The notes under the pieces: generated by a model
What the model was told of the DNA's origin: nothing
Databases searched by the model: none
The model's input: only the letters and a program-made list of their open reading frames with translations
Shown: piece after piece, positions 13,481 to 62,655 of the stretch
How positions within the stretch are numbered: position 1 is the stretch's first letter
Layout: each line of letters begins with the position of its first letter
DNA from: Candidatus Hydrogenedentota bacterium
GTDB taxonomy: Bacteria > Hydrogenedentota > Hydrogenedentia > Hydrogenedentales > G963678445
DNA: 64,000 bases
Assembly (NCBI GenBank): GCA_963678445.1
Contig: OY782877.1
Span: 3,178,503-3,242,502, forward strand
Direction of reading: 5' to 3'
Program-made: the position numbers and the translations under genes

Positions 13481-14788
13481 ATGAATGCTGTTTCGATGAA
13501 ATTGCCCAAGGCGATAATTCAGGATGATCCGTGGGCGGATGACGTATTAGAGCGGAAACAAATTGCGGAAGCGCTTACCAACATGCTTGCGCATGAAAAG
13601 AATGCGCTGGTCGTTAGCCTGAGTGGAAGCTGGGGGACGGGTAAAACTTTTTTACTCGAACGATGGCAAGCCGAGTTGGAAAAGGCGAAACGGAAAGCCA
13701 TCTATTTTAATGCATGGGAAGACGATTATTGTGGCGATCCACTGGTCGCAATCATAGGCCAAATTTGGCACTCCCTGAAAGGTTCTGATTGGAAGGAGAT
13801 AAAAGAATCTATCAAAGAGACGGCAATGCCTTTGTTTCGGAAGACAGTATTCAACGGACTCAGAACCATTACCCAAGGTGTTGTTGATTTGGATGAAGCA
13901 TCATTAAAATCGATAGCTGAACACGCCTTTGATGAATATATAAAGGAACGTAACCCAAAGGACAATCTCAAGAAACATCTTGCCGAAATGGCAGAAAAGG
14001 TGTTTGAGGATACGGGCTTTCCTCTGGTCTTTATCGTCGATGAACTGGATCGGTGTCGCCCTACCTTTGCCATTGAAGTGCTTGAACGTATCAAACATAT
14101 TTTTGACATTCCCCATATGGTTTTTGTGCTTGGCATTGACCGTAACCAACTCGCTTCCTGCATCCGGGCAGTATATGGAGATATAGATGTAGACGGATAT
14201 TTGCGTCGCTTTTTTGATTTTGAATTCACTCTTCCGCCTGCGAATGTAGAGGTTTTTTGTAAGCACTTGATGAAAAGACATGATTTGCCTGGTTATTTTC
14301 AGGAACTGGGCAAGACGGGAAAAAAAGGGTGGGCCCAAACTGCATGCGCTGGATTTGAGGAGTTTCTACCAAGTTTTTTTAATTGTTTTTCCCCCTCCTT
14401 AAGAGATATTGAACATCTTATTCGTATGTTTTTCTTTACCGTAAAAAACATGGATAGCTACAATGAAATTTATCCTGAAATTATTTCTCTTTTGCTTATT
14501 CTGCGGATAAAGAATTATTCATTATATCTTCAATATATACATGGTAAGTGTTTGCCAAAAGATATTTTAAACTATGTTACTGATTTTTTGGGGAATACAA
14601 AATTCTCTTCGCGTCACGATTTACTAGCAAAGTTTGAATCGTTTATATGCGAAAGCTTTCCAGACAGTGCAGCTTCTAATGATGAGGGATATCAAAGATA
14701 CGATGCTCTTTATCGGGATGTCCGCCGCGAAGTTGTGTTGCTGCATGAAAATATGGAACTAGCTTCTTTGATACAGAAAAAGTCTTGA
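13481..14788 (+). CDS. KAP-family P-loop NTPase
   Basis: Walker A LSGSWGTGKTF and Walker B FIVDELDRC, matching the KAP NTPase pattern. The 3' half of the gene is markedly AT-rich compared with its neighbours. Confidence 0.75.
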   Translation: MNAVSMKLPKAIIQDDPWADDVLERKQIAEALTNMLAHEKNALVVSLSGSWGTGKTFLLERWQAELEKAKRKAIYFNAWEDDYCGDPLVAIIGQIWHSLKGSDWKEIKESIKETAMPLFRKTVFNGLRTITQGVVDLDEASLKSIAEHAFDEYIKERNPKDNLKKHLAEMAEKVFEDTGFPLVFIVDELDRCRPTFAIEVLERIKHIFDIPHMVFVLGIDRNQLASCIRAVYGDIDVDGYLRRFFDFEFTLPPANVEVFCKHLMKRHDLPGYFQELGKTGKKGWAQTACAGFEEFLPSFFNCFSPSLRDIEHLIRMFFFTVKNMDSYNEIYPEIISLLLILRIKNYSLYLQYIHGKCLPKDILNYVTDFLGNTKFSSRHDLLAKFESFICESFPDSAASNDEGYQRYDALYRDVRREVVLLHENMELASLIQKKS

Positions 14789-47319: not shown

Positions 47320-48489
47320 CTAGCGCATTAGAGTGAGTTCAACACGCCCTTTCATATCCTCAGCAATCTCAGGTCTGTCAAGCATGCCAGGAGAAAGAGC
47401 TCTCCCCTTTTCCTGAGTCTGGAAGTTCAGGTACTTTGACCAACGATGAAGGTCGTCCATACTGACGTAATTGAAGCGAACTCGTTCACACACGACATGC
47501 CCCCCCGAGCGTTGCAAGAGAAACACGTGTGTTTCTGGATCGTAGCTAATGGGCGAAAGCTCGGAAAACTTCCCTTCTGACACTGCGTAGCGCCTGACAA
47601 AGCCCGTCGAGCGATTCTTGCTGCCCTCACGCTCGACACCGATCCTGTAGAGTATGTGTTCCTGACCGAATCTCCTCAATAGATACTCCGAACGAGAACC
47701 CATGGGAGCGACGGCTGAGGAAGCCAGGAGGGTACAGCTGTCAAGTGCAACGAGATGAAGATGCAACTCGTCTCCCTCTTTCAGTCTCGACCAGATGATA
47801 GCTCGCTCGCCCTCGAAACAGGCATATGAGCAGAATGCGGTTGCCTTCTCCTTGCATAGCAAGGAGGAGGCAACGCACCTCCCCGTCTCTCTCCCACTCC
47901 ACGCATCGATCTTCAGAATGGTGTCGTACGTTGAGGCTCGACCGACAAAGAGGAGTCTTTTGTCTTCGGATAGCGAAACAGGATATCCAAGCCTGAGATC
48001 GAAGCCGAAATCCTGCGCTGCTGATTGGCTTAGGGGATGACAAACGAGACTACTGCGTTTCTCGAAGTCCCTGACGTACACAAGATCCTTCGAGACAGGA
48101 AGAACGAGGGAATCACCTCCAGTGAACTGCCGAATACCAGTATCCCGAAACGAACCCGAAGTAACGTCAAACAGATAGAGTTGATCCTCCCTTTTGTCTG
48201 GCTCATGGACGAAGAAGTAGCCTACTTTTTCGTCAGCGAGATACCATCCCCGGAGTATGGCATGCGACCGGAGCCCCAGTAGCGGCACGCGCGCGACTTC
48301 GCGAGCACTACGTTCGGCGTAATCGATCTCTAGAATCACGCCCTCCGCAGTAAGGTCGTAGTAGACGCTCGTGTCGCCATCAGCGGGTACTGAACGTAGA
48401 GCATACTCAGAGGCGTGAACACTCGCGGTAGCAAGAGCACTCAAGACGAGCACACACCCACTTGTGCATATTAGGAATCGTCGGTTCAT
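47320..48489 (-). CDS. Secreted hypothetical protein (island cargo)
   Basis: Start re-assigned to MNRRFLICTSGCVLVLSALATASVHA (signal peptide). No motif recognised. Confidence 0.5.
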   Translation of the reverse strand: MNRRFLICTSGCVLVLSALATASVHASEYALRSVPADGDTSVYYDLTAEGVILEIDYAERSAREVARVPLLGLRSHAILRGWYLADEKVGYFFVHEPDKREDQLYLFDVTSGSFRDTGIRQFTGGDSLVLPVSKDLVYVRDFEKRSSLVCHPLSQSAAQDFGFDLRLGYPVSLSEDKRLLFVGRASTYDTILKIDAWSGRETGRCVASSLLCKEKATAFCSYACFEGERAIIWSRLKEGDELHLHLVALDSCTLLASSAVAPMGSRSEYLLRRFGQEHILYRIGVEREGSKNRSTGFVRRYAVSEGKFSELSPISYDPETHVFLLQRSGGHVVCERVRFNYVSMDDLHRWSKYLNFQTQEKGRALSPGMLDRPEIAEDMKGRVELTLMR

Positions 48490-48601
48490 TCTGGATACTC
48501 CTCTCCGTCCTGATGGTCCCAACCTTCCGGGAATTGTCCCGTGCCCCCATCCGCACCTTGCACAAAACCAAATATGCAAATAATACCCAGAAGTTGCTGT
48601 T

Positions 48602-50005
48602 TCATGGAAAAACGTTATATGTGCGTTCGAAACAGGGGGTATTTTCTTCCTCGTCATCCTCCCATTGACAGTCGGCTTTTGAGGGGTAAATGGTTTGTTG
48701 CTTGGGGGTGGGGTTCTCTGGAGTTGGGGATTCGATGGCCCAGTGCGCATGGTGTACCCAGTCGGCTTGGATGCAGCATTGTTTCTGATCTTCCAATACC
48801 TTTCCGTCGATGAAGGGGCAGCGGTACAAACTATCCTTATGCCGGAAGAGGAGTTCGTCGTTCTCGGTAATCAGCAAGACCTCCATATCGGGCTGGGTAG
48901 TCCAGGTAGACATTTTCTCTCCGTTGGAAGTGATAAAGCGGTACACCGCATGATTAGGATCGAAGTATTTGGTTTCGCGTTTTGGAGGGAAGACCACCCA
49001 ATAATCGCCACGTCGGACAGTGCCGCTAGAAAAATAATTCGCATCTAACGATAACGTTTTCCAGGACTTCTTGACCTTGTCAAAGAGCACAAAGTATCTT
49101 TTTGGTATTTTTTGGGCAGGATCCCATATGTATAACGCTATGAACGCCTGCGTGTCGGTCTGCGCATATATGGAACCATCCGCCCAAGCCTGTGAATCCG
49201 TATGTCCCGACATCCAGGCCCCATCATTCGTTAACGCCTTATGCTGTTCCAGTATCTCCTTCGACAGGAAAAAAACCATTGGTATCATGTACCGGTATAT
49301 TTGATGATACATTTCCCCCGTCTCTTTGTTGAGATGAAAATCAATGTCTCGATACGATGAAACGAAGGGGGAGGCATCCTGGTACACGATATTTTCCCAT
49401 TTTACATCCGCTCCAGGCACGATACTGAGCTGGTCGGAAGCCAAGTCGTACTGATAGAATTTATCCGTTTCAAGTTTTGTTATGAGCACATTTAGTTTGC
49501 CATCCGATGTATTGTAGAAATAATTCTGCCTCACAATCCTTTCCGGCAAGGTATATTCTTCAACGAACTTTTCTTGTTTAAAATCATAAATCCTGAGCCA
49601 CCCCCTTGTCTTTTTCCGATCTTCAGCAGATTTTTTGTAATAATTGTCTATTATCGATTTATTTCCCAAAAGCAATGCCCATTTCTTCTCGGGATGAATA
49701 AATACATTGTTTACTCCGTCCAGAACGGTTATTTGTTGGGCTGACGCACCCAAGTACGATTCAGCGCGGAAATTTCGCGAATAGATTTGGGTAGCTTGAT
49801 TCATTTCCGGATTCAGCCGATAAATCGCAAACGTCGTAGGGGGAACGATATCTTCATCGGGATTGCTTACCAAATAAAGGCTTGTGTCTGCATAAATACC
49901 TTGCACAAAGCTCAATAGACAAACGCCGAGTAATACAACAAGGCCCACACGCGGCAACGATGAACCTTGCCTTTTCTGGTCAATATATGAATCTTTATCA
50001 GGCAT
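48602..50005 (-). CDS. Secreted hypothetical protein (island cargo, AT-rich)
   Basis: Signal peptide-like N-terminus (GLVVLLGVCLLSFVQGIYA), 467 aa, notably AT-rich coding sequence. Confidence 0.5.
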   Translation of the reverse strand: MPDKDSYIDQKRQGSSLPRVGLVVLLGVCLLSFVQGIYADTSLYLVSNPDEDIVPPTTFAIYRLNPEMNQATQIYSRNFRAESYLGASAQQITVLDGVNNVFIHPEKKWALLLGNKSIIDNYYKKSAEDRKKTRGWLRIYDFKQEKFVEEYTLPERIVRQNYFYNTSDGKLNVLITKLETDKFYQYDLASDQLSIVPGADVKWENIVYQDASPFVSSYRDIDFHLNKETGEMYHQIYRYMIPMVFFLSKEILEQHKALTNDGAWMSGHTDSQAWADGSIYAQTDTQAFIALYIWDPAQKIPKRYFVLFDKVKKSWKTLSLDANYFSSGTVRRGDYWVVFPPKRETKYFDPNHAVYRFITSNGEKMSTWTTQPDMEVLLITENDELLFRHKDSLYRCPFIDGKVLEDQKQCCIQADWVHHAHWAIESPTPENPTPKQQTIYPSKADCQWEDDEEENTPCFERTYNVFP

Positions 50006-50100: not shown

Positions 50101-51009
50101 TTATTCTTTCGGCAGGAGCCACCAGTAGTCTTTTTTGTTCTCCTCCCACCAGGTGAGCCAGTAGGCGGTGTCGTGGACGTTGTCAGGCACCACGTTGGGT
50201 ACACGTTTGGGGACTAAGCGTACGCCGTCGTCGTATTCTCCCTCTTCCTGGGGATATACGAGGCCGTATCCTCTATCAATGAGATCTTGTACTTCGGGCG
50301 GTGGTGAAGTATGTTTTTTGGGCCTAGATTTTAGAAGGCGAATTTCTTCTTCCTCTCCTTCCACTGGGGTGAGCGCCAGGGTCAGGAGCACGAGATCGTA
50401 ATAATCTGAATGCTCTTCCTGGATGCGTTGCATAATAAAAGGGACGGCTAGAAGCCCCATTGTCTTCAATGCGGAAAAAGTAGGCTCAGAGAACAGTTTT
50501 TCCTTGTCGATAGCTCCCTGCGCCAGACGTTGATCAAAGGCCTGTCTTCTGACCACGAAGGCTTCTTTTGAATAGGTAGACACATTTTTCCAGAAATGGA
50601 TTATTTTTCCCTGTATTTCGGGTGTGGGCAACGCACGCCCCGGACGAATCTCATCATAGGTCATACCAGCAACATCTAGCCAGAAGCCATTGAGCATTCT
50701 GGCGAGAGCATCGTCATAATTAAGATTGCCATACTGCGTCTGTATCAGTTCCTCAACCATGAAGGGGACGCCGGCCGCTTGCATATTGACGAGGTTGATG
50801 TAATCCTCGCCGATAAAAAATATATTTGTAGTACTTGAATATTGTAACTTTGGTTTTTTCAATATTTTGGAATCCCAGTTGCTTAAATAGACATTGAATT
50901 GCTTGTATTCTTTTGCGTGCTGCGTATACAGAGAATCGAAAATCTTCTCTTCCTGCGCCATACTGGAAAACGATATACTCAAAACACATGCAAGATAGAA
51001 AAAACGCAT
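50101..51009 (-). CDS. Secreted hypothetical protein, paralog 1 of tandem pair (candidate immunity protein)
   Basis: Start re-assigned to MRFFYLACVLSISFSSMAQE (signal peptide). Near-identical to the upstream paralog over long stretches, including an identical C-terminal 31 aa. Confidence 0.6.
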   Translation of the reverse strand: MRFFYLACVLSISFSSMAQEEKIFDSLYTQHAKEYKQFNVYLSNWDSKILKKPKLQYSSTTNIFFIGEDYINLVNMQAAGVPFMVEELIQTQYGNLNYDDALARMLNGFWLDVAGMTYDEIRPGRALPTPEIQGKIIHFWKNVSTYSKEAFVVRRQAFDQRLAQGAIDKEKLFSEPTFSALKTMGLLAVPFIMQRIQEEHSDYYDLVLLTLALTPVEGEEEEIRLLKSRPKKHTSPPPEVQDLIDRGYGLVYPQEEGEYDDGVRLVPKRVPNVVPDNVHDTAYWLTWWEENKKDYWWLLPKE

Positions 51010-51050
51010 ACTTTGTCCCTTCGCATTTTCATGATCTGCGGGGTGGTGGT

Positions 51051-51956
51051 TTATTCTTTTGGCAGGAGCCACCAGTAGTCTTTTTTGTTCTCTTCCCACC
51101 AGGTAAGCCAGTAGGCGGTGTCGTGGACGTTGTCAGGAACTACGTTGAGGATAGGCTTGGGGACTAAGCGTATACCGTCGTCGTATTCTCCCTCCTCCTC
51201 GAAACATCCGGGACAGTAGTATCTCGTTTCATGGTTCCCTTCTGCGTTCGGCGAAGTGCCTTTTTTGAACCTAGATTTCAGACGGCGAATTTCTTCTTCC
51301 TCTCCTTCCACCGGGGTGAGCGCCATGGTCAGGAGCACGAGATCGTAATAATCTGAATTTTCTTCTTGGATGCGTTGCATAATAGAAGGGACGGCTAGAA
51401 GCCCCATTGTCTTCAATGCGGAAAAAGTAGGCTCAGAGAACAGTTTTTCCTTGTCGATAGCTCCCTGAGCTAAACGCTGATCAAAGGCCTGTCTTCTGAC
51501 CACGAAGGCTTCTCTTGAATAGGTAGACACATTTTTCCAGAAATGGATTATTTTTCCCTGTATTTCGGGTGTGGGCAACGCACGCCCCGGACGAATCTCA
51601 TCATAGGTCATACCAGCAACATTCCTCCACCCCCCCCTGATCATTTTGGAGAGAGCATCGTCATAAAAAGAATTGCCATACTGCGTCTGCATCAGCTTTT
51701 CAATCATGAAGGGTACGCCGAGCGCTTGCATATTGACGAGGTTGATGTAATCCTCACCGATAAAATAAACGTATAGAAGGCTTGAGCTTTGTAGTTTTGG
51801 ATTCTTAAATATCTTGGAATCCCAGTTGTTGAAATACGTGTTAAACTGTTTGTATTCTTTCTCGCGTTGTGTATATAGAGAATCAAAAATCTTTTCCTCC
51901 TGCGCCATGCTGGAAAATGATATACTCAAGATACACATCAGATAAAAAAATCTCAT
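51051..51956 (-). CDS. Secreted hypothetical protein, paralog 2 of tandem pair (candidate immunity protein)
   Basis: Start MRFFYLMCILSISFSSMAQE with RBS aaggag 7 nt upstream, 16 nt after the stop of the giant gene. About 90% nucleotide identity to the 50101-51050 unit. Confidence 0.6.
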   Translation of the reverse strand: MRFFYLMCILSISFSSMAQEEKIFDSLYTQREKEYKQFNTYFNNWDSKIFKNPKLQSSSLLYVYFIGEDYINLVNMQALGVPFMIEKLMQTQYGNSFYDDALSKMIRGGWRNVAGMTYDEIRPGRALPTPEIQGKIIHFWKNVSTYSREAFVVRRQAFDQRLAQGAIDKEKLFSEPTFSALKTMGLLAVPSIMQRIQEENSDYYDLVLLTMALTPVEGEEEEIRRLKSRFKKGTSPNAEGNHETRYYCPGCFEEEGEYDDGIRLVPKPILNVVPDNVHDTAYWLTWWEENKKDYWWLLPKE

Positions 51957-51972
51957 TTCAGGCTCCTTATCC

Positions 51973-54900
51973 TTATCTATAATACCGCGTTGGTGGACCA
52001 TATTCTTTTAACCACGTGTCGCCATGCGTAATGCGCTCTTCTTTACCTCGTTTACTACCCCAATTTCCGCCACAATCGTCTATTTTATAGGCGTGAAGAC
52101 CTTTTTTCGGGTTATTCTCGTCAAACACAAGGCCCACCCTGGCCCCTTCTCTGGTTGCACAGTGTTCGAAACCATGCTCCGCATAGAACGCATCCCAGTC
52201 ATCATTTTTAATTTTCCCATCGTTATTGCCATACTCAGCATCAACAGAAACGTACTTAGGATCTGAAGAAGGGTAAAAATAGGTTATCCATTTGTCGGTT
52301 CTTCCCACACTCCAGGCGATACAGTTGTATCTATCTGTAGGTTCGTCGGTTTTACAGACAGGGACCAGTTTTTCTTCTCCTTCTGTATAATATCCTAGAA
52401 ATGCGCAGGCTGCGTTTGGGATTCCACAGGCGCATATTGGCTGGAAAACAGGGGTTATGCTTCTGGATTCCGTCATTGTAAGGTAAATGGTGCTTTTTTT
52501 GAGGTTGGAGAGAGTGTTGGGCAGAAAGACTCTTGTCCAGCCGTTGGTGTCGGATGTGGCGTAGCCCCAGGCATCGCCTTTGCCGCACCAGCCTGCGAAG
52601 GCGTAGCCGGGTAGGGGACGGGCTTTTATCTGGACGATATCGTTGTCGTTGTAGTATTTTTGGGCAGGGTCGCTGGTAACGTAACCTTTACATCTTGAAT
52701 AGCCGAGATCGAGGGTGTGGGCGGATTTGGCTTTGTAGCTAACATGGGCGCCGCATGAGCTTGGGGTGGTCTCCCAGCTTACGCCTTGATATCCAAGGGT
52801 ATTAGAGTGTGGAACAGGAATGGCTGTAACATCACAGGAGCTGGAGCAGGTAACGGGAGGTAGAATTCGGGTTCCACCAACGATAATGGGCAGGACGCCA
52901 ATTGTGCTTGAGGAGGTATAGGTCTTTGCTGTAGAGGGAATGGGGGAAGATGAAATGATGGGTTCGAGCGCCGTAAGCTCAGATTTTCCCGGAAGTTGTA
53001 TGGTGGCGCCGTAGCTGATGACATCGTTAATGACGCCATTGTCATAGAGTTCCCAACGTCCCTTGCCCTCGGGGGGGAGGAAAAAGCTGATGGTGACGGA
53101 TTCGTTTTGTGGCGTAGTGATGTTAACGCCTTGGTAAATATCACTTTCGTCATATACCGGGCTTATGGAACCCTCCGAAAGAAGATGTAACCCCACGTTT
53201 TCGGCTATTTGAGCAGCCGGCAGAAAAAGTGTGGTCTCCCATTTTTCGATAACGTTTGCTTTGATGGTATAGCCCTCATAGGATTTGGGCACCACAAAGG
53301 TTTCGACGGATTTGTCGCTACCGTCTATGGGCAGGTCGGGCGCGTGCCAGCAGCTGAAGGTGGCGAATGCCGGATTGATGGTCTCGGCAGTAACGGTGAC
53401 CTCGCGTCCAACACGCAACGGTACGGTGCTATTTTCGCCAATGGTGTCAATTTCGCAGTCGTTGGTTTTTCCGGTAATGCGAATGGCCACCCTTTCGGGT
53501 TCGGGGCCATCATTACCATCCGGATCCAAAAGCACGTTTTCCAAGGTAATTGGCGTAGTCGCACCGTTGCATGTATCGTTTTCACAAGTGACGCATTCTC
53601 CGGGTGGGGGTTGGTAGCCGGAGGGCGCTATGCCGTCGCTGGCGTTTGAACCGTAGTTTTTGGCGTCGCCCAGGGATGTGCTGCTCGCGGCTTTTGGGGC
53701 GTTCAGGGACGCTGGCTGTACGCTATCCAGGGTATAGTGCCATTCGCCGATGTTGACCAGGCCGTCGTTGTCGCAGTCGTTTTCGGGGGCGAAGTGTTGT
53801 AGGGATTCGATGGCGTAGTTGCTGCTGTCGAGTTCGATGCCGGTGAGTTCTTCGATTTCGTGGCATATCATGTCGGTGGCGCCGTAGTAGCCGAGGGTCA
53901 TGTAGGAGGCGATTACGTTGATGATAGCGGCGGTGCATTCGACGGGTTGGGGGTTGATGAGGGGGTTGCACCAGGGGCTGATATCCGTTGTGGCGCGTGC
54001 GTGGTTTTGCATAAAGTGCTTGTAAACCAGTTTGTTGGATACCCCGCCGGTTTCGGACAGGTTAATCTCGGGATGGAGCAGAACGTGTTCGAGCAGGGCG
54101 AATTCGGCGGCGTCGGGGATGCCGTTTTCGGTGTGGATGGGGTTACCGGCTTCGTCGAAGAAGAGGCCACCGCGGTCCCATTGCATGTTGCTCACTTCTT
54201 GGGCGGAGGTGAGTTCTCCGATGTTTTCCAGGAATATGCCGAGGTCAGCGATCAGGTCGAGGTCGGTCAGTTCGGAACGTTCCTCGAAAAAGGCGGTAAG
54301 GATAACGTCGGCATCAAGGGGAAGCTGTATGTCGGGGAAGGGAATGCCGCCGGTGTTTTGCTGGAAGGCCATGTTGTTGAAATTGGCGATGCGGAGGGTG
54401 TTGTGCCATTGGTCCTGCCAGTAGAGGAAGGTCCAGTCGGTGTCTGCCTGTGCGGTGAGGGGCAGGGTGTTTACTTCGCAGTCGGGACAGTCGGTCTGGG
54501 TGGAGTTGGGCGGCCAGTCGAGGGGGCTGTAGGTGAGGATGTATTTTGTGCCTTCGAAGGGGGTAAGTGCACCGTTGCCCTCGTCTTGGAGAGTTACTTT
54601 GACACTGGGAGGTGTGCCGGTCGCTTCGGGATCGTTCACACTGAGCAGCATCTCTTTGCTTACCAATTGGTTGGAGGTGCTAAGCGCAAGGGCATGGAAA
54701 AAACCGGGGGTGTCGGTCCAGGTAGTGAAAGAGGCAAAACCGTCTTCCACATCCTGAAACAGGTATTCTTCGAGGTTGGTGAATCCATCACCATCAAAAT
54801 CACCATCCTGATGAAACACATCGTCGAGGCAGGTGAATTCCCAACAGGATGGGGGCTGCGGAACGATTCCGTAGCGTTGGACCAGGTTGGCAATGTAGAG

Positions 54901-55872
54901 GGCCTCGGCGTTCAAAACGCTTTCCAGGCTAAGTGTGCTATACGTGGCCAGTGCGCAAACTACGGCGTAGTCGGGATGGGTAAAGTTGGGTAGCTGTGCC
55001 GCCACTGTGTCGTTGTATTCAAGCCAGAGGGCCAGATTGGATAGCCATGCGCTCCGGGCTTCCGCATAGAGCGGATGGCTCTGGTCCTCCAATACGCGCT
55101 CGAGTAGGAAGAATTCCAGCACGTCGGGTATGTGGTAGCCTTTTGTATCCGGGTTCAGATTAAAGAGTCCGGTAGTATCAATAGCCGTCTGATCGATGTT
55201 CAGCGTGGGGAGAAATTGGCTTATAAAAGGACGTGTCAAAAAATCCCAATCAACATCGTCAATTTGGTTCAGGATGTTGTTGTAATCGGCTAGCAGCAAT
55301 GCCAGTGTGTCTATGGGACCCAGCGTAAGATCGGGAGGATTGAGGGAGCGATCGATACCGCGCAGGTAATCAACAAAGTGCTGCAGGTCGCCCGGCAGGT
55401 GATGTTTAACAAATACGGCATTTACACTGGTATTCGTCGTTAAGGGGAAGGTGAGCGGCCATGCATACTGCGCTGCACCGGTATCCACCGACCAGTGGTC
55501 AAAGCGGTACCCGATAGACGGCGTTGCTTTAAGGGTGAGGGGCGTGTTCCAGCCAAAGGTGTAGGGCGAATTATAGGACACACCGCCAGATTCGACAGTA
55601 ACGTCGCCTTGGGTCGTGTCGCAAGTAAGATTCAGCGTATATTGGTCAAGCTCAAACGTGGCGTATGCGGTTATATCCCTGTTCATGGTAAGCACCACCG
55701 TACTGGGTTGGGTAGCGAGATCCCCCGTCCATCCCGTGAAATGATAATGAGGATTGGGCATCGCGCTAAGCGTGACGGAGTCGCCGTAGGTATACACTAT
55801 AGGGAAGCTATCCGTATTCGGCGGCGTCGCGGTGACATGACCGCTTCCCTTACTCAAGTCGTTTCTATTCAC
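51973..55872 (-). CDS. Giant (1299 aa) multi-domain secreted/surface protein with a C-terminal Cys/His putative hydrolase (toxin-like) domain
   Basis: Repeated GYxFxGW/HW InlB-B-repeat-like modules (HYHFTGWTGD, GYRFDHWSVD, GYAFAGWCGKGD). Thrombospondin-type-3/dockerin-like Ca-binding loops (DGDFDGDGFTNLEEY, DCDNDGLVNIGEW). A distinct last ~160 aa (…YNCIAWSVGRTDKW…HAYKIDDCGGNW…). Confidence 0.7.
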   Translation of the reverse strand: MNRNDLSKGSGHVTATPPNTDSFPIVYTYGDSVTLSAMPNPHYHFTGWTGDLATQPSTVVLTMNRDITAYATFELDQYTLNLTCDTTQGDVTVESGGVSYNSPYTFGWNTPLTLKATPSIGYRFDHWSVDTGAAQYAWPLTFPLTTNTSVNAVFVKHHLPGDLQHFVDYLRGIDRSLNPPDLTLGPIDTLALLLADYNNILNQIDDVDWDFLTRPFISQFLPTLNIDQTAIDTTGLFNLNPDTKGYHIPDVLEFFLLERVLEDQSHPLYAEARSAWLSNLALWLEYNDTVAAQLPNFTHPDYAVVCALATYSTLSLESVLNAEALYIANLVQRYGIVPQPPSCWEFTCLDDVFHQDGDFDGDGFTNLEEYLFQDVEDGFASFTTWTDTPGFFHALALSTSNQLVSKEMLLSVNDPEATGTPPSVKVTLQDEGNGALTPFEGTKYILTYSPLDWPPNSTQTDCPDCEVNTLPLTAQADTDWTFLYWQDQWHNTLRIANFNNMAFQQNTGGIPFPDIQLPLDADVILTAFFEERSELTDLDLIADLGIFLENIGELTSAQEVSNMQWDRGGLFFDEAGNPIHTENGIPDAAEFALLEHVLLHPEINLSETGGVSNKLVYKHFMQNHARATTDISPWCNPLINPQPVECTAAIINVIASYMTLGYYGATDMICHEIEELTGIELDSSNYAIESLQHFAPENDCDNDGLVNIGEWHYTLDSVQPASLNAPKAASSTSLGDAKNYGSNASDGIAPSGYQPPPGECVTCENDTCNGATTPITLENVLLDPDGNDGPEPERVAIRITGKTNDCEIDTIGENSTVPLRVGREVTVTAETINPAFATFSCWHAPDLPIDGSDKSVETFVVPKSYEGYTIKANVIEKWETTLFLPAAQIAENVGLHLLSEGSISPVYDESDIYQGVNITTPQNESVTISFFLPPEGKGRWELYDNGVINDVISYGATIQLPGKSELTALEPIISSSPIPSTAKTYTSSSTIGVLPIIVGGTRILPPVTCSSSCDVTAIPVPHSNTLGYQGVSWETTPSSCGAHVSYKAKSAHTLDLGYSRCKGYVTSDPAQKYYNDNDIVQIKARPLPGYAFAGWCGKGDAWGYATSDTNGWTRVFLPNTLSNLKKSTIYLTMTESRSITPVFQPICACGIPNAACAFLGYYTEGEEKLVPVCKTDEPTDRYNCIAWSVGRTDKWITYFYPSSDPKYVSVDAEYGNNDGKIKNDDWDAFYAEHGFEHCATREGARVGLVFDENNPKKGLHAYKIDDCGGNWGSKRGKEERITHGDTWLKEYGPPTRYYR

Positions 55873-56379
55873 TTCAAGTTTTCTTTCCTGTCTGGGATTA
55901 TATAATCCAGACCAGAAATTGATATACGAGCGGAAAGGGCACTTTAGACTTACGCAATACCCCCCTCACGGATGTAGGTCCGGGGGGGCTTTTTTAGATC
56001 TGTCGACAGACATCCCCGATAACGTCATAGAAACTCATTTTCTTCGGAGTATCCCGTGTCTGAGATAATATTGCTTGTGAAATACATCAGCTTCATTCAA
56101 TAGTTGGTGGACCTTGGGAGTGTTCTTTATCTGATATCCAATTATCATAGTGATTGGAAGCGCAGGAAGACTAACAAAATTTATCGAGAATAGCTCCATA
56201 TAACATATTTGAAATCAGCTACATATGAAGGGTGTTCTGAAATAGAATTCGGTGCTTTGTTAGCACTTGACATCAATGAGTGCTAAGCGTTATACTCATA
56301 ATTATCCTAAAAAGGGTGCGTATTAAGCGCCAGAGATAGCTTAGCAAAACAGAGATTATAAAGGACTTAACGAAACCAC

Positions 56380-57363
56380 ATGACAGAACCTTTTCAGATA
56401 CTCTCGTTAGATGGCGGCGGCATCAAGGGCCTATTTTCTGCTGCTGTGCTGGCACATATCGAGAAGGACTTGAAAACCCGAATCGTAGACCATTTCGATT
56501 TAATCGTCGGCACTTCTACCGGTGGAATCATAGCTCTGGCCCTAGGCCTAGGAATATCGCCCAAGGAGATAGTTGAGTTCTATGTAGAAAAAGGACCAAA
56601 GATTTTTCCGAAGGGATGGTTGTTTCGGCCTGTAAGAGGACTTCAACATTATGTCATGCGAAAATTCTCTGCTAGGGGACTTGAGAAGGCTCTTCAAGAA
56701 ATCGCTGGCGACAAGACTCTGGGAGACTGCCAAAAGCGTTTAGTAGTTCCTTCCTATAACCTTCAAGAGAATGATGTTTACCTTTTCAAGACCCCCCATC
56801 ATAAACGCTTTCGAAGGGACTGGGAAATTCCTGTCTGGAAGGTGGCCCGTGCGACCTCCGCTGCTCCTACATACTTCTCGGCATACAGAGGGATTGATTC
56901 TGTCCGTCTCATTGACGGAGGTGTGTGGGCAAATAATCCGTGTATGGTGGGTGTAGTCGAAGCTATGAGCACACTCTCTGTTGATTCTGCCTGCCTGAAA
57001 CTATTTAGCATTGGTACTTCAGATGGAGTAGTACGGCGCTCCTCGCTACTTGATTGGGCAGGGCGTTTTCTTTGGGCACGTCACGCCAGCGATGTGCTCT
57101 TGGACGCGCAGTCAAGAGGAGCCTTCACCCAAGCTAAACTCATTTTAGGCACGGACCGGACGTACCGCATCAACCCTAAGGTACCTGCGGGGCTGTTCGG
57201 TCTCGATAAATTGTCAACAAAAGAACATCTAGGTATGGCAGCTCACCAAAGTAGAAAGTTTATACCTATCTTTGAACAACACTTCGCAGCCCACACCGCC
57301 CCAAAGTATCAACCGTTCTATGGCCGAAACTCAGATACCGACGAAACACCGACAACTGATTAA
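56380..57363 (+). CDS. Patatin-like phospholipase (CBASS CapV/CapE-type effector)
   Basis: Oxyanion GGGIKG, nucleophile elbow GTSTGG (GxSxG), catalytic DGG (LIDGGVWANNP). Confidence 0.85.
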   Translation: MTEPFQILSLDGGGIKGLFSAAVLAHIEKDLKTRIVDHFDLIVGTSTGGIIALALGLGISPKEIVEFYVEKGPKIFPKGWLFRPVRGLQHYVMRKFSARGLEKALQEIAGDKTLGDCQKRLVVPSYNLQENDVYLFKTPHHKRFRRDWEIPVWKVARATSAAPTYFSAYRGIDSVRLIDGGVWANNPCMVGVVEAMSTLSVDSACLKLFSIGTSDGVVRRSSLLDWAGRFLWARHASDVLLDAQSRGAFTQAKLILGTDRTYRINPKVPAGLFGLDKLSTKEHLGMAAHQSRKFIPIFEQHFAAHTAPKYQPFYGRNSDTDETPTTD

Positions 57364-57371
57364 GGAAACAT

Positions 57372-58565
57372 ATGATGGAGACAAAACAAAAAGTGATTGA
57401 GTCGTTGGTAGAATCGCTTGAGGTTTCGCCTAGCACGTATGAGTTAGCCGAAAGCAGGTATAAGGATTTGGGGGTGTGGCTTCATGACGCTTCCAAAGCA
57501 AAGGTAGCGCCATATGATCCACATGTTTTTCCCCAAGGCTCTATTCGGCTTGGCACAGCCATTCGCCCCTTGGATTCCGACCATTACGATTTGGACCTAG
57601 CGTGCGAATTGCGAGCAGGTATCTCGACGAATTCTCACAGCCAAGAAGATGTAAAGGCTTTTATTGGCGGGGATCTTGAGAAATATCGAATCGAGCGAAA
57701 TATTAAGGATAAGCTTGATGAAAAACATCGCTGTTGGAGGCTAAACTACCAAGATAGTCCTAGATTCCATATGGACACCGTTCCATGTATCCCACACGAT
57801 GAAAAAATACGACAACATCTTTTTGAAAGCATGAAAACGGGAAGCATCCAGACAGAACTCGCTGATAACATCGCCAATCAAGCAATTGCTATCACTGATA
57901 ACAGGCGGCCAGATTTTTCCATGCTCTCTCCCAACTGGCCTATCAGCAATCCCGAAGGATATGCTATTTGGTTTGAATCCCGCATGAGACAAGCGAAGCA
58001 GCTTCTCGAATGTCGGGTGGCTTCGGCTCTGGTAGCAAGTATCGAGGAGCTTCCTACTTACCAATGGAAATCCCCACTTCAGCGATGTGTGCAGATTTTG
58101 AAACGGCATAGGGACCAGATGTTTCGTCAGAATGGCGATGCCAAACCTATCTCAATAATCATAACGACTCTGGCCGCTCAGGCCTACCAGGGTGAACGCG
58201 ACATATACGAGGTGCTTGCGCAGATTTTGAACTCAATGGGTAACTTTGTACGCCCTACAGCGCCACGTGTCCCAAATCCTGTAAATCCGAAAGAAGACTT
58301 TGCCGACAAGTGGGGCACGCTAGAAGGAAAGCGGCTTGCACTTGAAGATAACTTCCGGCTTTGGCTGCAACAAGCAAAGGCAGACTTTGAAAACCTTTCC
58401 TCCGCAAGAACACGCCAGCGGGTGGCTTCACTGACTACTCATAAGTATGGAGTGAATATCAGCGAAGAACGACTTGAGCAAATCCCAGGGCTTTCTTCAT
58501 CTGCCCCGACAATTGCGTCTTTTAAGATCGCCGAATCGTCACCCCCAAAGCCATGGCAAAAGTAA
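57372..58565 (+). CDS. cGAS/DncV-like nucleotidyltransferase (CD-NTase, SMODS-type)
   Basis: Pol-beta-type minimal NTase signature GS-x9-D-x-D (QGSIRLGTAIRPLDSDHYDLDL) plus a third acidic residue (FHMDTVPCIP). 397 aa. Starts 9 nt after the patatin gene (RBS aaggaaa) and overlaps the next gene by 13 nt. Confidence 0.7.
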   Translation: MMETKQKVIESLVESLEVSPSTYELAESRYKDLGVWLHDASKAKVAPYDPHVFPQGSIRLGTAIRPLDSDHYDLDLACELRAGISTNSHSQEDVKAFIGGDLEKYRIERNIKDKLDEKHRCWRLNYQDSPRFHMDTVPCIPHDEKIRQHLFESMKTGSIQTELADNIANQAIAITDNRRPDFSMLSPNWPISNPEGYAIWFESRMRQAKQLLECRVASALVASIEELPTYQWKSPLQRCVQILKRHRDQMFRQNGDAKPISIIITTLAAQAYQGERDIYEVLAQILNSMGNFVRPTAPRVPNPVNPKEDFADKWGTLEGKRLALEDNFRLWLQQAKADFENLSSARTRQRVASLTTHKYGVNISEERLEQIPGLSSSAPTIASFKIAESSPPKPWQK

Positions 58566-59221
58566 AAAAAACTTGGACGGATATTGATCTACAGGGATTT
58601 CTACGCAAGTTCCCTGACATGTCTGTAGTACCGCAGAAAGAAGGTTCGTTGGTTCTTGAGGGTTGTTTTAGCTTTGAGGCATCAACAACTTCTCATGGCT
58701 CTGAGTCTGGTACTTACCTTCTTCGAATCAAAGTTCCACCCTCATTTCCTGCAGAGCTTCCTCGGGTTCAAGAACTCGGAAAGCGCATACCTAAGAATCC
58801 AGAACACCATATCAATTCCGACGGTTCACTCTGTTTGGGATCGCGTATCCGTCTACTTGTTCAAATCTCAAAAGAGCCGACTCTTTGTGGCTTCGCTAAG
58901 AATTGTCTAATACCATATCTCTTTGCCATCACACGAAAACTAAAACATGGTAACGCACTGGTATTCGGAGAGCTTGCTCACGGCAACACAGGAGAACTCA
59001 ACGATTATGCTGATTTGTTGAATCTTGACAATCCCCCTGCGGTCCTTTGCGCATTGAAGTATCTCGGAATGAAAAAGAGACGCGCCAACAAACTACCTTG
59101 TCCATGTGGCTGTGGCTTGCGCCTTGGCAAGTGTAGATTCAACTTTCATTTACGCGAACTCCGTTGTCTTGCTGAAAGGGATTGGTTTCAGTCGGTCCTA
59201 AGCGATCTGGAGAAACAGTGA
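58553..59221 (+). CDS. E2 ubiquitin-conjugating-like protein (CBASS Cap2-short type) with C-terminal Cys cluster
   Basis: UBC-like active-site region PEHHINSDGSLCLG (HPN-like...G-x-LCL) and a C-terminal CPCGCGLRLGKC. 222 aa, with no E1 or JAB partner present. Confidence 0.55.
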   Translation: MAKVKKTWTDIDLQGFLRKFPDMSVVPQKEGSLVLEGCFSFEASTTSHGSESGTYLLRIKVPPSFPAELPRVQELGKRIPKNPEHHINSDGSLCLGSRIRLLVQISKEPTLCGFAKNCLIPYLFAITRKLKHGNALVFGELAHGNTGELNDYADLLNLDNPPAVLCALKYLGMKKRRANKLPCPCGCGLRLGKCRFNFHLRELRCLAERDWFQSVLSDLEKQ

Positions 59222-59284: not shown

Positions 59285-60805
59285 CTAAAAGAGGGAGGCC
59301 CCCCGGCTATGCCGGGGGATACTTACTAATAACGTCTCCAACTGCGTCAGGCCCGACAAATACGACAAATCCGAGAACTCACCCGTCGCGGATATCTGGT
59401 TTTCACTCAGATTCAGCGTCGTCAGGTTCTTAAGATCTTCCAGAAAATCAATCTCAGAAAAAGAATTGTTCGACAAATCCAACGTCTGCAAATCCAGGCA
59501 ATATTGAATCCCTTCTATCGAAGTAATTCCCAACCCCGACGCATCCAACGAGGTAAAACCTTTGTTTATCAAACCTTCCCAATACAACGTACCTGTCAAT
59601 TTCCCCACCGCCGCACGCACCGCCGTTTCCAAACGCATATCCACAAAATACGTCGTCGCATCCGGTGACGGCAAGGCTACCATCCGCACCTGCACATCGG
59701 AATTCATCGTCAAAGTCGTCGGATTGTCGTAAGCATGGACCGGGTCCATTCCGGGAACAGTCACCTCGAAATACTCAAGAATCCAGTCCTCTTCCGGAAC
59801 CGCCATAATCTCCACCGAAGCACCCGCACGATACTTCTCCGCAATCGGATACGGATATATCCCCAAGCCCGACCAAGACCGTGTCATCGTATAAAACGTT
59901 CCCGCAGGAACCGTCTGCACATCCAACGCCGCCGCATAATACGCCGCAAAATTCTGCTCAAACGTACTCAGCACCGCCTCCTCCTGCCACTCCAGCAGAT
60001 TACTGAACGTATCCCCATCCACATCCCCCTGCGCAGAAATCAGCGGCACCAACGATGTATCCAGCAAGATAGAAAAATCTTCCTCCTCTGCAAACTCAAT
60101 CCCCAACTCATCCGAAAACACCGTGGCTATAAACACAGAAAGCGGATCTCCCAACACCGCATACGCCGTTAACACCTCAACCACCCCCGCAGGCACGCCT
60201 GCCGGGACCGTCGCATCAGCAAACAACGCCGCCACCGCCAACCAACGCGTTGCCAACGCCACATGCGTAAGCCCACCCGAAGCCGACAAATCCACCGTAT
60301 CATCCTGCAACACATCCTCCAACACCAAAAACTCCGCCAGATCCGGAAAACCATTCGGCTCCCCATACGCAACCCCATCCTCATCCAACGACGCACCATT
60401 TAGATCAACCGCCTCTGCGCTATCCGGCAAATCCAAAAACGTTGCAAACGTCGCCATCGAAGCCCGCAGATCCAGATTATCAAACTGCCCACCCGTCTTC
60501 GCCTCCAGAAAGCCCCTACCCCTACTACCCTTTTCCTCCATCAACATCGCGCGCCGCTCAGGATTCGAAAAACTTTCCCAATCCACCGACATACGATGTA
60601 CCCGATCCAATTTTCTCGCCTCCTCCTCCGTGATCCCCTCCATATCCGGCAAAATCTTACGCAACCCCTGCTTCGCACTCGTAAAACGCGGCATCCCCAT
60701 TCCCGAAACTCGAGCACGCCCCTCCAATACCCCCTGCGACCCCGCCTTCCCCTCTCCCGCACCCCGCTTCATCAGAGCCCCCTTCCCTGTATGCCGCAAA
60801 CACAA
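59285..60805 (-). CDS. Leucine-rich-repeat protein sharing N-terminal modules with the giant protein
   Basis: C-terminal LRRs (LDLSNNSFSEIDFLEDLKNLTTLNLSENQIS). N-terminal segments FPDLAEFLVLEDVL and DGDTFSNLLEWQ parallel IPDAAEFALLEHVL and DGDGFTNLEEY of the giant protein. Confidence 0.55.
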   Translation of the reverse strand: MCLRHTGKGALMKRGAGEGKAGSQGVLEGRARVSGMGMPRFTSAKQGLRKILPDMEGITEEEARKLDRVHRMSVDWESFSNPERRAMLMEEKGSRGRGFLEAKTGGQFDNLDLRASMATFATFLDLPDSAEAVDLNGASLDEDGVAYGEPNGFPDLAEFLVLEDVLQDDTVDLSASGGLTHVALATRWLAVAALFADATVPAGVPAGVVEVLTAYAVLGDPLSVFIATVFSDELGIEFAEEEDFSILLDTSLVPLISAQGDVDGDTFSNLLEWQEEAVLSTFEQNFAAYYAAALDVQTVPAGTFYTMTRSWSGLGIYPYPIAEKYRAGASVEIMAVPEEDWILEYFEVTVPGMDPVHAYDNPTTLTMNSDVQVRMVALPSPDATTYFVDMRLETAVRAAVGKLTGTLYWEGLINKGFTSLDASGLGITSIEGIQYCLDLQTLDLSNNSFSEIDFLEDLKNLTTLNLSENQISATGEFSDLSYLSGLTQLETLLVSIPRHSRGASLF

Positions 60806-61269: not shown

Positions 61270-61314
61270 CTGGGTGGCCCCCTGCCCCTTTGTGGTCGCT
61301 GGACCGCTTTGGTA
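61270..61314. repeat. REP/MITE-like repeat, partial copy I
   Basis: ctttgtggtcgctggaccgctttggtaagg. Confidence 0.6.
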
Positions 61315-61461
61315 AGGTGGCCCCGGAATCCCTCCTTGACAAAAGTTTCAGGGGGTGAGAAAATATGCGCTGTTTTTCGGCGCGTTTGTCAGAGTATTTT
61401 TGTTTGCGCGTTGCTCTCTTTTTGCGTCAATCAGGGCAATATCTGTGAGAAAGGAATTGTT

Positions 61462-62655
61462 ATGTGGAATAGAATCAGCGTCGGAATCCTGCCTGCTCGC
61501 GCACTTATTGTACTGTGTCTCCTCTCCGCGATTGCGGCGGGGCCGGCTCAAGGTGTCAGTATTGAACAGGATCCCTCTGAATACCCCCGTTCCGTGGATC
61601 TCTTTGTTCGAGGATCGGATGGCATAGCGCTACACCGTATTCCTGCCCTCACGGTAACCTCAAAAGGCACCTTGATCGCGGTTGCCGATGCGCGTGTGGA
61701 TGAAGGCGATGATCTTCCAAACAACATTGATCTCGTCATGCGCCGGAGCTTTGATCTGGGCCGAACCTGGACCCCCAGCGAGGTAATTGTCGATTTCCCC
61801 GGTACAGAGGGCGCGGGAGATGCCAGCCTCTTGACCGATCGTGAGACCGGTCGGGTCTTCCTTTTCTACACCTATGGTCCGGAGGGCATTGGCTCTACGC
61901 AAAGCCAGCCAGGACTTGATGGCCCAACGGTTCAACTCCAAATCATCCACAGCGATGACGAAGGGGCCAGCTGGTCGGAAGCACTTCACCTGAATCCGCA
62001 AGTAAAAGACCCCGCATGGAGTGCGGTCTGGTCCTCCCCGGGTCACGGCTTTCAGACCCCTTCGGGACGCCTCTATTTCCCCCTTTCACGCAAATCCGAT
62101 ACCCTGTATTCGCACTTTATCTATAGCGATGACCATGGAGCAACTTGGAAAATCACCGCCCCTGCGGGTCGTAACACAAACGAGTCCATGGGCGTTGTCC
62201 TGGATGATGGCCGCTTGATGGCCAATATGCGTAGCATGGACGGAAAACATCAGCGGATAGTTTCTGTTTCCAGTGACGGTGGCAAGACCTGGAGTGCCCA
62301 GTATCATGACGCCACCCTGATCGAGGCCGAATGTCAGGCTAGCCTGATTCGCTATTCCTGCCTCTCCGCCGGAGATGATAAAAATCGCCTGCTCTTTGCC
62401 AATCCCGCGAGCACGAAACGGGAAAACATGACCATCCGCCTCAGTTACGACGAAGGCCAGACCTGGCCGATTTCCAAGTCCATCTGGCCCGGCGTCGCGG
62501 GATACTCCGCGCTCGCGGTGCTCCCGGATGGATCCGTGGGGCTCTTTTACGAACACGGCGTACAGCACGCCACCGATCAACTTGCCTTTGTTCGCTTCAC
62601 CCTGGAATGGCTCACCAGCGGTAAAGACAAAGGCTTTAAGCCTAGGAAACAGTAG
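61462..62655 (+). CDS. Exo-alpha-sialidase (GH33, BNR/Asp-box)
   Basis: Start re-assigned to MWNRISV (signal peptide). RIP motif (HRIPAL) and five Asp-boxes (SFDLGRTW, SDDEGASW, SDDHGATW, SSDGGKTW, SYDEGQTW). Confidence 0.85.
   Translation: MWNRISVGILPARALIVLCLLSAIAAGPAQGVSIEQDPSEYPRSVDLFVRGSDGIALHRIPALTVTSKGTLIAVADARVDEGDDLPNNIDLVMRRSFDLGRTWTPSEVIVDFPGTEGAGDASLLTDRETGRVFLFYTYGPEGIGSTQSQPGLDGPTVQLQIIHSDDEGASWSEALHLNPQVKDPAWSAVWSSPGHGFQTPSGRLYFPLSRKSDTLYSHFIYSDDHGATWKITAPAGRNTNESMGVVLDDGRLMANMRSMDGKHQRIVSVSSDGGKTWSAQYHDATLIEAECQASLIRYSCLSAGDDKNRLLFANPASTKRENMTIRLSYDEGQTWPISKSIWPGVAGYSALAVLPDGSVGLFYEHGVQHATDQLAFVRFTLEWLTSGKDKGFKPRKQ

Follow-up and report, generated by a model that had tools for sequence, protein, structure and literature searches.

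A DUF7689 candidate thiol-hydrolase toxin and two exported partner proteins in a probable polymorphic-toxin-type locus of Candidatus Hydrogenedentota

In the window analyzed here, a stretch of 64,000 nucleotides (nt) from a Candidatus Hydrogenedentota bacterium (assembly GCA_963678445.1, contig OY782877.1, positions 3,178,503 to 3,242,502), an open reading frame (ORF) of 1299 amino acids (aa) is followed on the same strand by two paralogous genes for signal-peptide proteins. The large ORF ends in a domain of the Pfam family DUF7689, and the locus is probably a polymorphic-toxin-type cassette, in which this domain, a putative thiol hydrolase, would be the toxin and the two exported paralogs its immunity proteins. 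As in polymorphic toxin systems, the C-terminal domain is common to proteins with unrelated N-terminal regions, a putative immunity gene lies immediately downstream on the same strand (with a 16-nt gap), and a cassette-like break occurs at the toxin boundary, both in the guanine-plus-cytosine (GC) content of third codon positions (GC3) and in the similarity to the closest relative, the protein P0006. A first-pass annotation of this DNA had already proposed a toxin and immunity locus of this type; at the level of sequence, the proposal is supported by the diversity of the carriers, by a partner linked to the toxin at about 71 of the 77 genome loci, and by the compositional break. Its coordinates for the locus hold, with all three genes on the minus strand, and its word "giant" overstates a protein of 1299 aa. 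The main interest of the locus lies in two families, that of the toxin and that of the partner, both widespread and unstudied.

The DUF7689 domain and its predicted fold

The large ORF matches DUF7689 with 56.7 bits (gathering cut-off 22.6) over profile positions 3–118 of 118, and the domain is a full member of this Pfam family, without any difference from it; the family has no assigned function. The Cys/His domain singled out in the first-pass annotation is the same one, with its three motifs (YNCIAWS, LHAYKIDD, and CGGNW) all present within the last 125 residues of the large ORF. The suggestion that the family might be undescribed stands as far as function and literature are concerned, none being found, and fails in that the family is catalogued, under the Pfam name "domain of unknown function." The fold class, the carrier fusions, and the obligatory partner described below are absent from any family description found.

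Three alignments of the family (with 50, 71, and 120 sequences) have as invariant or near-invariant elements N-C, H, S-K-x-G, a second H, and Y-G. The window protein keeps all of these: N1183, C1184, H1260, S1273, K1274, G1276, H1283, Y1291, and G1292. The AlphaFold2 model of the region, built from the 120-sequence alignment, has a mean predicted local distance difference test (pLDDT) score of 80, with a core above 90 (approximately 80–97 from model residue 41 onward; 6 of 13 ten-residue blocks above 90). In the model, the Cys (residue 47) sits at the N-terminus of helix 47–51 and His123 opens strand 123–127, an outcome of the structure prediction that the first-pass annotation had put forward as a check on the C-terminus. 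S136 and K137 are on the strand after His123, and H146 ends the strand after that. This predicted layout (alpha+beta, with Cys at a helix N-terminus and His on an antiparallel sheet) fits that of the papain-like clan CA, and the papain-like fold class is well supported by the model. The candidates for a third triad residue are the invariant S1273, on the strand following the His, and the invariant H1283, one strand later; either Ser1273 or His1283 would be the third catalytic residue.

The best Foldseek matches of the model are 8ssm, a C-terminal toxin domain of CdiA (CdiA-CT), and 9l5u, both non-significant (E 0.13–0.24, with a template-modeling score of approximately 0.35); USP and Josephin proteases are also among the matches. 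The entry 9l5u bears the description "papain-like cysteine protease toxin/immunity pair" and is probably Cpe1-Cpi1. The models for NLPC_P60, CHAP, Peptidase_C39, transglutaminase, and Tae in Pfam and NCBIfam give no match at E < 0.1, and PDB sequence searches with DUF7689, as a single sequence and as a profile, give nothing meaningful (a match to a tau repeat was dismissed as chance). PADLOC and NCBIfam have no match for the toxin domain or for the partner. Because matches in Pfam, NCBIfam, and PDB sequences are absent, the placement of DUF7689 in any named peptidase family is not supported. The earlier idea of a papain-like amidase is thus retained for the fold class in the model and not for a named family.

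DUF7689 relatives and their partner domain

Searched exhaustively with phmmer, 1.84 billion representatives yield 71 with DUF7689, of 72–1299 aa. In nearly all the multidomain ones DUF7689 is the C-terminal end; in P0056 and P0069, it is N-terminal and fused to the partner. A profile search of a 5.8-billion-protein set yields 2166 DUF7689 clusters, mostly stand-alone proteins of approximately 145 aa, and a word-indexed homology search gave no match with the C-terminal 175 aa of the large ORF and self matches alone with the paralogs. The first-pass annotation had advised looking for the same C-terminal domain on other scaffolds, and these do occur: among the 71 representatives, eCIS_core (DUF4157) is found in nine, Flg_new_2 in three, the Rhs repeat in one, and PKD, TSP_3, Chlam_PMP, PPC, and transglutaminase in one each. 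In P0021, which has the Rhs arrangement, a transmembrane segment comes ahead of DUF7689. In other genome loci, the domain is carried on scaffolds with PKD or of unknown type, reaching 1577 aa. The combination of an N-terminal DUF4157 and a C-terminal toxin is a documented layout for toxins of extracellular contractile injection systems (eCIS) (Geller et al. 2021, PMC8213781).

P0006 has 38% identity with the large ORF over 258 aligned columns (53% over a C-terminal query of 164 aa), and the similarity is limited to aa 1057–1299. The scaffold of the large ORF has a GC content of 54% and a GC3 of 64%, against 45% and 40% in the toxin domain (last 162 codons); the paralogs have 45%–46% GC and 51%–53% GC3. 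The GC break, together with a similarity restricted to the C-terminus, is what would be expected from a toxin/immunity module recombined onto a resident scaffold.

Most multidomain members have, ahead of DUF7689, a motif of the form (F/Y)-I-A-A-x-C-G-x-Q-P ... F-P-x-L-x-x-C-E-W-S-I-T-G. In the subfamily of the window protein, this motif is replaced by a Cys-rich linker, C-x-C...C...V-P-x-C-K, common to P0006, P0007, and P0009. Both elements could serve in processing or as a boundary. DUF7689 frames are split by frameshifts in four loci (L022, L026, L043, and L081) and the partner frame in one (L002, 4685–5004), which suggests frequent decay of these modules or, alternatively, assembly errors. 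Another locus (L024) contains two toxin–partner pairs within 6 kb.

The partner domain was recognized from two sides. The C-terminal extensions of P0056 and P0069 match residues 151–231 of the paralogs (BLAST E 5e-5 and 1e-4), and stand-alone DUF7689 genes have, immediately upstream, a gene for a protein of approximately 107–166 aa that ends 6 nt before the DUF7689 start or overlaps it by 7 nt. The proteins encoded upstream have in common the motif F..L...W...SS...HPAYQEIIGMG..AVP.LL..L.....W..AL..ITG..P...G....WL.W. A partner profile was seeded on three DUF7689-adjacent ORFs and iterated on the ORFs in all six frames of 83 related loci, the window not being among them. When run against 446 ORFs of the window, it matches only the two paralogs (E 1.3e-12 and 2e-12), with two domains in each; hhalign of the profile against the two paralog domains gives 84% and 52% probability. 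On these matches, the paralogs are the dedicated partner of DUF7689, a predicted HEAT-like helical domain of approximately 90 aa present in two tandem copies. Since the profile selects them alone and their relatives are linked to DUF7689 elsewhere, the possibility that they are common housekeeping lipoproteins, which the first-pass annotation had named as a refutation, is rejected at the level of sequence.

The DUF7689 alignment retrieved 77 genome loci, from Planctomycetota, Myxococcus and relatives, Acidobacteriota, Kiritimatiellia, Omnitrophica, and Lachnospiraceae and from a few metagenome-assembled genomes (MAGs) of archaea; in about 71 of them, a partner domain is adjacent on the same strand or fused. 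Stand-alone toxins have the partner upstream, multidomain toxins have it downstream, and about 15 loci encode both in one reading frame. Downstream from multidomain toxins, the partners are mostly of 225–350 aa, with two domains, and nearly all have a signal peptide; ten toxin proteins related to the window protein within this exported subclass have one as well. An exported two-domain partner recurs behind Sec-exported DUF7689 proteins in several phyla, and the window locus clearly belongs to this subclass, except that its carrier has no signal peptide. With eCIS-linked, stand-alone, and fused forms of DUF7689, the partners are cytoplasmic. The fusions into a single polypeptide (DUF7689, a linker of approximately 45 aa, then the partner) come mainly from Planctomycetota and Lachnospiraceae (L028, L030, L032, L035, L038, L040, L050, L066, L071, L074, and L078–L082) and include P0056 and P0069. 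One stand-alone partner, scanned against Pfam, contains no DNA-binding domain.

The locus and its surroundings

The features of the locus and of its neighborhood are collected in Table 1. The InlB-B-repeat-like modules seen on first reading correspond to three Flg_new_2 stretches (divergent InlB B-repeats; Pfam, E 3e-23), and the calcium-binding loops to two canonical 12-residue loops of the EF-hand type (aa 358–369 and 699–710), each closing a helical module. The canonical core of the first loop is DFDGDGFTNLEE. Upstream of the GTG, just 31 further codons of the frame are open, none of them a start codon; the TAA stop is at 51975–51973.

Table 1. Features of the DUF7689 locus and neighboring genes (window positions)
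Feature	Positions	Strand	Remarks
Large multidomain ORF	51973–55872	minus	1299 aa, GTG start at 55872
Two N-terminal Flg_new_2 B-repeats	55408–55872	minus	aa 1–155; Pfam, best stretch aa 27–76
EF-hand-type Ca-binding loop DGDFDGDGFTNLEE	54766–54807	minus	aa 356–369, end of helical module 1; read from sequence
Second EF-hand-type loop DCDNDGLVNIGE	53743–53778	minus	aa 699–710, end of helical module 2
Last B-repeat	52453–52704	minus	aa 1057–1140; P0006 similarity and GC drop both begin here
Cys-rich linker/pre-domain ICACGIPNAACAF...VPVCKTDEPTD	52351–52452	minus	aa 1141–1174; low model confidence
DUF7689 domain (PF24738)	51976–52350	minus	aa 1175–1299; putative papain-like/NlpC-P60-like thiol hydrolase toxin
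Codon of invariant Cys1184 (YNCIAWS)	52321–52323	minus	predicted nucleophile, helix N-terminus
Codon of invariant His1260 (LHAYKIDD)	52093–52095	minus	predicted general base, beta-strand start
Ribosome-binding site AAGGAG	51963–51968	minus	within the 16-nt gap between large ORF and paralog 1
Paralog 1	51051–51956	minus	301 aa, ATG at 51956, signal peptide aa 1–18; putative immunity protein
Near-identical tract, putative gene conversion	51296–51596	minus	in paralog 1; counterpart ~50349–50649 in paralog 2
Paralog 2	50101–51009	minus	302 aa, architecture as paralog 1
Two signal-peptide ORFs	47320–50005	minus	467 aa and ~389–476 aa; directly downstream of paralog 2
Terminator-like hairpin and T-run	55976–55991	plus	~100 nt upstream of the large-gene GTG, in a stop-rich non-coding stretch
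CBASS-type cassette	56380–59221	plus	three genes
506-aa ORF	59285–60805	minus	helical module with EF-hand-like loop, one Flg_new_2 repeat
KAP-family P-loop NTPase	13481–14788	plus	E 1e-38

The coupling of the large ORF to the next gene, claimed from the start, is seen in the short gap and the ribosome-binding site, with the correction that the first partner, a signal-peptide protein, has 301 and not 302 aa. Both paralogs open with a Sec-type signal peptide, MRFFYL(M/A)C(I/V)LSISFSSMA|QEE, followed in each by the two tandem partner domains and a C-terminal WLxWWee motif; neither has a match in Pfam, NCBIfam, PDB, or PADLOC. Paralog 2 begins 41 nt past the stop of paralog 1, and the start-to-start spacing is 947 base pairs (bp), so that a tandem duplication of some 950 bp stands as described. 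Its identity and age have to be revised. Instead of approximately 90% nucleotide identity, the two copies have 86% (82% in protein), and the identity is a mosaic, with 93%–100% over nt 360–660 and 60%–85% in the remainder. By the Nei–Gojobori method, the synonymous (dS) and nonsynonymous (dN) distances are 0.42 and 0.11 overall (dN/dS 0.27), and both copies are under purifying selection. The dS is 0.68 over codons 21–120 and 0.88 over codons 223–262, against 0.11 over codons 121–222. With dS values of 0.7–0.9 in the flanks, the duplication is not very recent; it is presumably an older one with a central tract recently homogenized by gene conversion. Paralog 2 departs from paralog 1 chiefly in domain 1 and in the domain-2 insert.

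The two signal-peptide ORFs downstream of paralog 2 have no Pfam or NCBIfam match; for one of them, another genome encodes a relative of 448 aa (in the cluster of P0004). They were dropped as components of the system, being mutually unrelated and without homologs in any related locus.

Directly upstream of the large gene lies a cassette of the CBASS type (cyclic-oligonucleotide-based anti-phage signaling system), with a patatin phospholipase effector, a CD-NTase cyclase, and an E2-only accessory protein (PADLOC E 5e-106, 2e-119, and 2e-77, respectively). Its GC content is 45%–49%, versus 54% in the scaffold of the large ORF, and a strong sigma-70-like site precedes it (56267–56296). Beyond it, the 506-aa ORF has a scaffold-like GC content, a helical module similar to module 2 of the large protein (aa 570–715), and a short, abruptly ending run of leucine-rich repeats; a signal peptide is absent. 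This ORF may be a surface-protein paralog, or it may be what remains on the far side of a gene that the CBASS cassette split in two. Such a split of one ancestral gene (59285–60805 plus 51973–55872) is not supported, neither flanking direct repeats nor a continuous frame being found. The KAP-family NTPase occurs among ordinary metabolic and envelope genes. The remaining window, with an RND (resistance-nodulation-division) efflux pump, an O-antigen ligase/TPR (tetratricopeptide repeat) protein, GH97, GH5, and a BNR sialidase-like gene (61309–62655), looks like an ordinary Gram-negative chromosome.

Proposed mechanism, rival readings, and known systems

In the mechanism that we propose, the scaffold, with its B-repeats, Ca-binding helical modules, and beta-rich domains, would display or deliver the toxin outside the cell, where it would act on an extracytoplasmic target in neighboring cells. 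The exported partner would bind and block any toxin reaching the periplasm of the producer itself, and the second, diverged copy may widen or back up the protection, perhaps against variant toxins. The substrate favored, because of the NlpC/P60-like fold, is the peptidoglycan stem peptide, on precursors (lipid-linked ones in particular) and on the mature wall. Toxicity, a neutralization through binding, the identity of the substrate, the compartment in which the toxin acts, and export of the window protein are inferences. The periplasmic action put forward in the first-pass annotation suits the exported subclass and does not extend to most of the family, which consists of cytoplasmic pairs or fusions. 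Given the cytoplasmic partners in most members, a purely periplasmic substrate cannot hold family-wide, and those that accompany the eCIS-linked, stand-alone, and fused forms point to a substrate found on both sides of the membrane.

Several observations weigh against a toxin with exported antidotes at this locus. The search for literature on DUF7689 or PF24738 returned nothing, and with it no experiment on any member. Most members pair with a cytoplasmic partner, and the union of toxin and partner in one polypeptide, in about 15 loci, is unusual for immunity proteins. The AlphaFold model of a paralog, from a two-sequence alignment, reaches a pLDDT of only 37. Neither the large protein nor the approximately 40 larger window ORFs scanned contain type VI secretion system (T6SS) domains or secretion-system genes. 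Above all, the N-terminal secretion or trafficking domain usual in polymorphic toxins was not found in the 1299-aa ORF: Pfam, NCBIfam, and the sequence itself reveal neither a signal peptide nor a lipobox nor any known trafficking domain, in agreement with the lack of an obvious Sec signal noticed at first. The 500 nt upstream contain no signal-peptide-coding ORF in any frame, and a signal peptide hidden there by a frameshift was rejected, the three-frame scan giving nothing of the kind. On the minus strand, no promoter-like site occurs in 55873–56380, in a scan for sigma-70 consensus sites only. Since the relatives have a signal peptide and the window carrier has none, the large gene may be 5′-truncated or silent, or its product may not be exported.

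These same gaps are what a decayed or silenced copy would leave, that is, a gene deprived of its 5′ end, its signal peptide, and its promoter (perhaps when the CBASS cassette arrived), whose toxin would no longer be exported and whose partners alone would stay useful, as orphan immunity genes. We hold this to be somewhat unlikely. It would account for a GTG start placed directly inside a B-repeat, for the plus-strand hairpin in the upstream stretch, and for the signal peptides of the subclass relatives; the lower GC content of CBASS and the split or frameshifted DUF7689 ORFs common elsewhere also agree with it. However, the 3.9-kb frame is intact with all its invariant catalytic residues, the CBASS cassette has no flanking direct repeats, and the promoter scan covered a single type of consensus. 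Moreover, the neighboring and related 506-aa ORF also has no signal peptide, so that another export route may exist. A different question is whether the same genes encode a toxin directed at proteins. The N-C motif of DUF7689 resembles the oxyanion Asn-x-Cys of USPs, and the top Foldseek matches are the CdiA-CT 8ssm and the toxin/immunity pair 9l5u, with USP and Josephin proteases also among the matches. The cytoplasmic partners of eCIS-linked, Rhs-linked, and stand-alone members would also fit an intracellular protein target. The model for such a protein-specific protease, in place of a hydrolase of peptidoglycan or its precursors, is Cpe1, an effector of T6SS and contact-dependent inhibition (CDI) that cuts GyrB and ParE (PMC12136450). 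In the subclass of the window, however, carrier and partner are Sec-exported, which argues for an extracytoplasmic site, and we judge the protease reading, although a serious alternative, unlikely here.

Some observations would also suit a locus that is no weapon at all, with the domain acting as a surface-processing or wall-remodeling enzyme, or as a peptidase of adhesin maturation, and the partner as a regulatory or substrate-recruiting subunit. A partner that can be upstream, downstream, or (in those approximately 15 loci) fused would be in line with an enzyme of two obligate subunits; the descriptions of the structure matches include many NlpC/P60 proteins that are housekeeping autolysins; and there is neither a PADLOC match nor a toxin-family annotation. 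Against an enzyme of this type, naturally fused toxin–antitoxin proteins exist, such as CapRel and EzeT, the distribution is patchy, the composition breaks at the domain, and pseudogenization is frequent; duplicated and diverging partner genes typify mobile conflict systems rather than housekeeping enzymes, and recruitment to Rhs and eCIS_core is characteristic of toxins (PMC8213781). A non-weapon function is therefore quite improbable.

If the reading as a toxin with exported antidotes were confirmed, the thousands of members of a domain of unknown function would be given a fold class, a predicted Cys1184/His1260 center, and an interbacterial or toxin–antitoxin (TA)-type role, while an unnamed helical domain would become a recognized, dedicated antidote. 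The family would then offer a model for a toxin and antidote moving among cytoplasmic TA pairs, fusions, eCIS or Rhs cargo, and Sec-exported surface toxins, and for the way in which immunity proteins adapt, through a signal peptide, duplication within the protein, and duplication of the gene combined with gene conversion. In this genome, it would place a probable competition locus next to a CBASS anti-phage cassette. A wider reading, which we advance tentatively and rate at somewhat less than an even chance, is that DUF7689 and its helical partner form a large, unstudied toxin/antidote family with three interchangeable formats and a substrate in both compartments. The formats would be a cytoplasmic bicistronic TA-like pair, an autoinhibited fusion, and an exported toxin with an exported, tandem-domain immunity protein. 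The family would comprise at least 2166 clusters, spread over many phyla of bacteria and a few MAGs of archaea, and the substrate would be, for example, the peptidoglycan stem peptide (on precursors linked to UDP or lipid, and in the mature wall) or a membrane lipid.

The known systems closest in fold are the NlpC/P60 and CHAP hydrolases, including those of the T6SS amidase effector/immunity pairs Tse1-Tsi1 and Tae3-Tai3, with which the DUF7689 model has in common the papain-like alpha+beta fold and the placement of Cys and His. DUF7689 differs from NlpC/P60, CHAP, and Tae by the absence of a sequence match, by the additional invariant S-K-x-G, and by the second invariant His. Tai proteins are periplasmic, and in the subclass of the window the antidote is likewise exported; the DUF7689 partner, however, is helical and unrelated to Tai in sequence, and in many relatives it is cytoplasmic. 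Unlike the Tae/Tai pairs of T6SS, the window locus has, among the ORFs scanned, no nearby T6SS genes and no Hcp, VgrG, or PAAR carrier. With Cpe1-Cpi1 and the CdiA-CT/CdiI pair of Citrobacter rodentium, the likeness is in the organization, a C-terminal papain-like toxin on a polymorphic carrier with the immunity gene directly downstream; the window partner differs in being an exported, two-domain helical repeat, and the structural matches to these toxins are non-significant.

The layout of the eCIS toxins (PMC8213781), with a small partner gene downstream, is found exactly in 9 of the 71 DUF7689 representatives, whereas the window protein has no eCIS_core and no nearby eCIS genes, its carrier being the scaffold of B-repeats and EF-hand-type loops. 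Most DUF7689 genes resemble type II TA systems, or the fused systems of the CapRel-EzeT type: they encode stand-alone proteins of approximately 145 aa, with a partner gene of approximately 107 aa that overlaps the start, or they form a toxin–linker–partner fusion. From these systems, the version in the window differs in being exported and borne on a scaffold, and it has no match in PADLOC.

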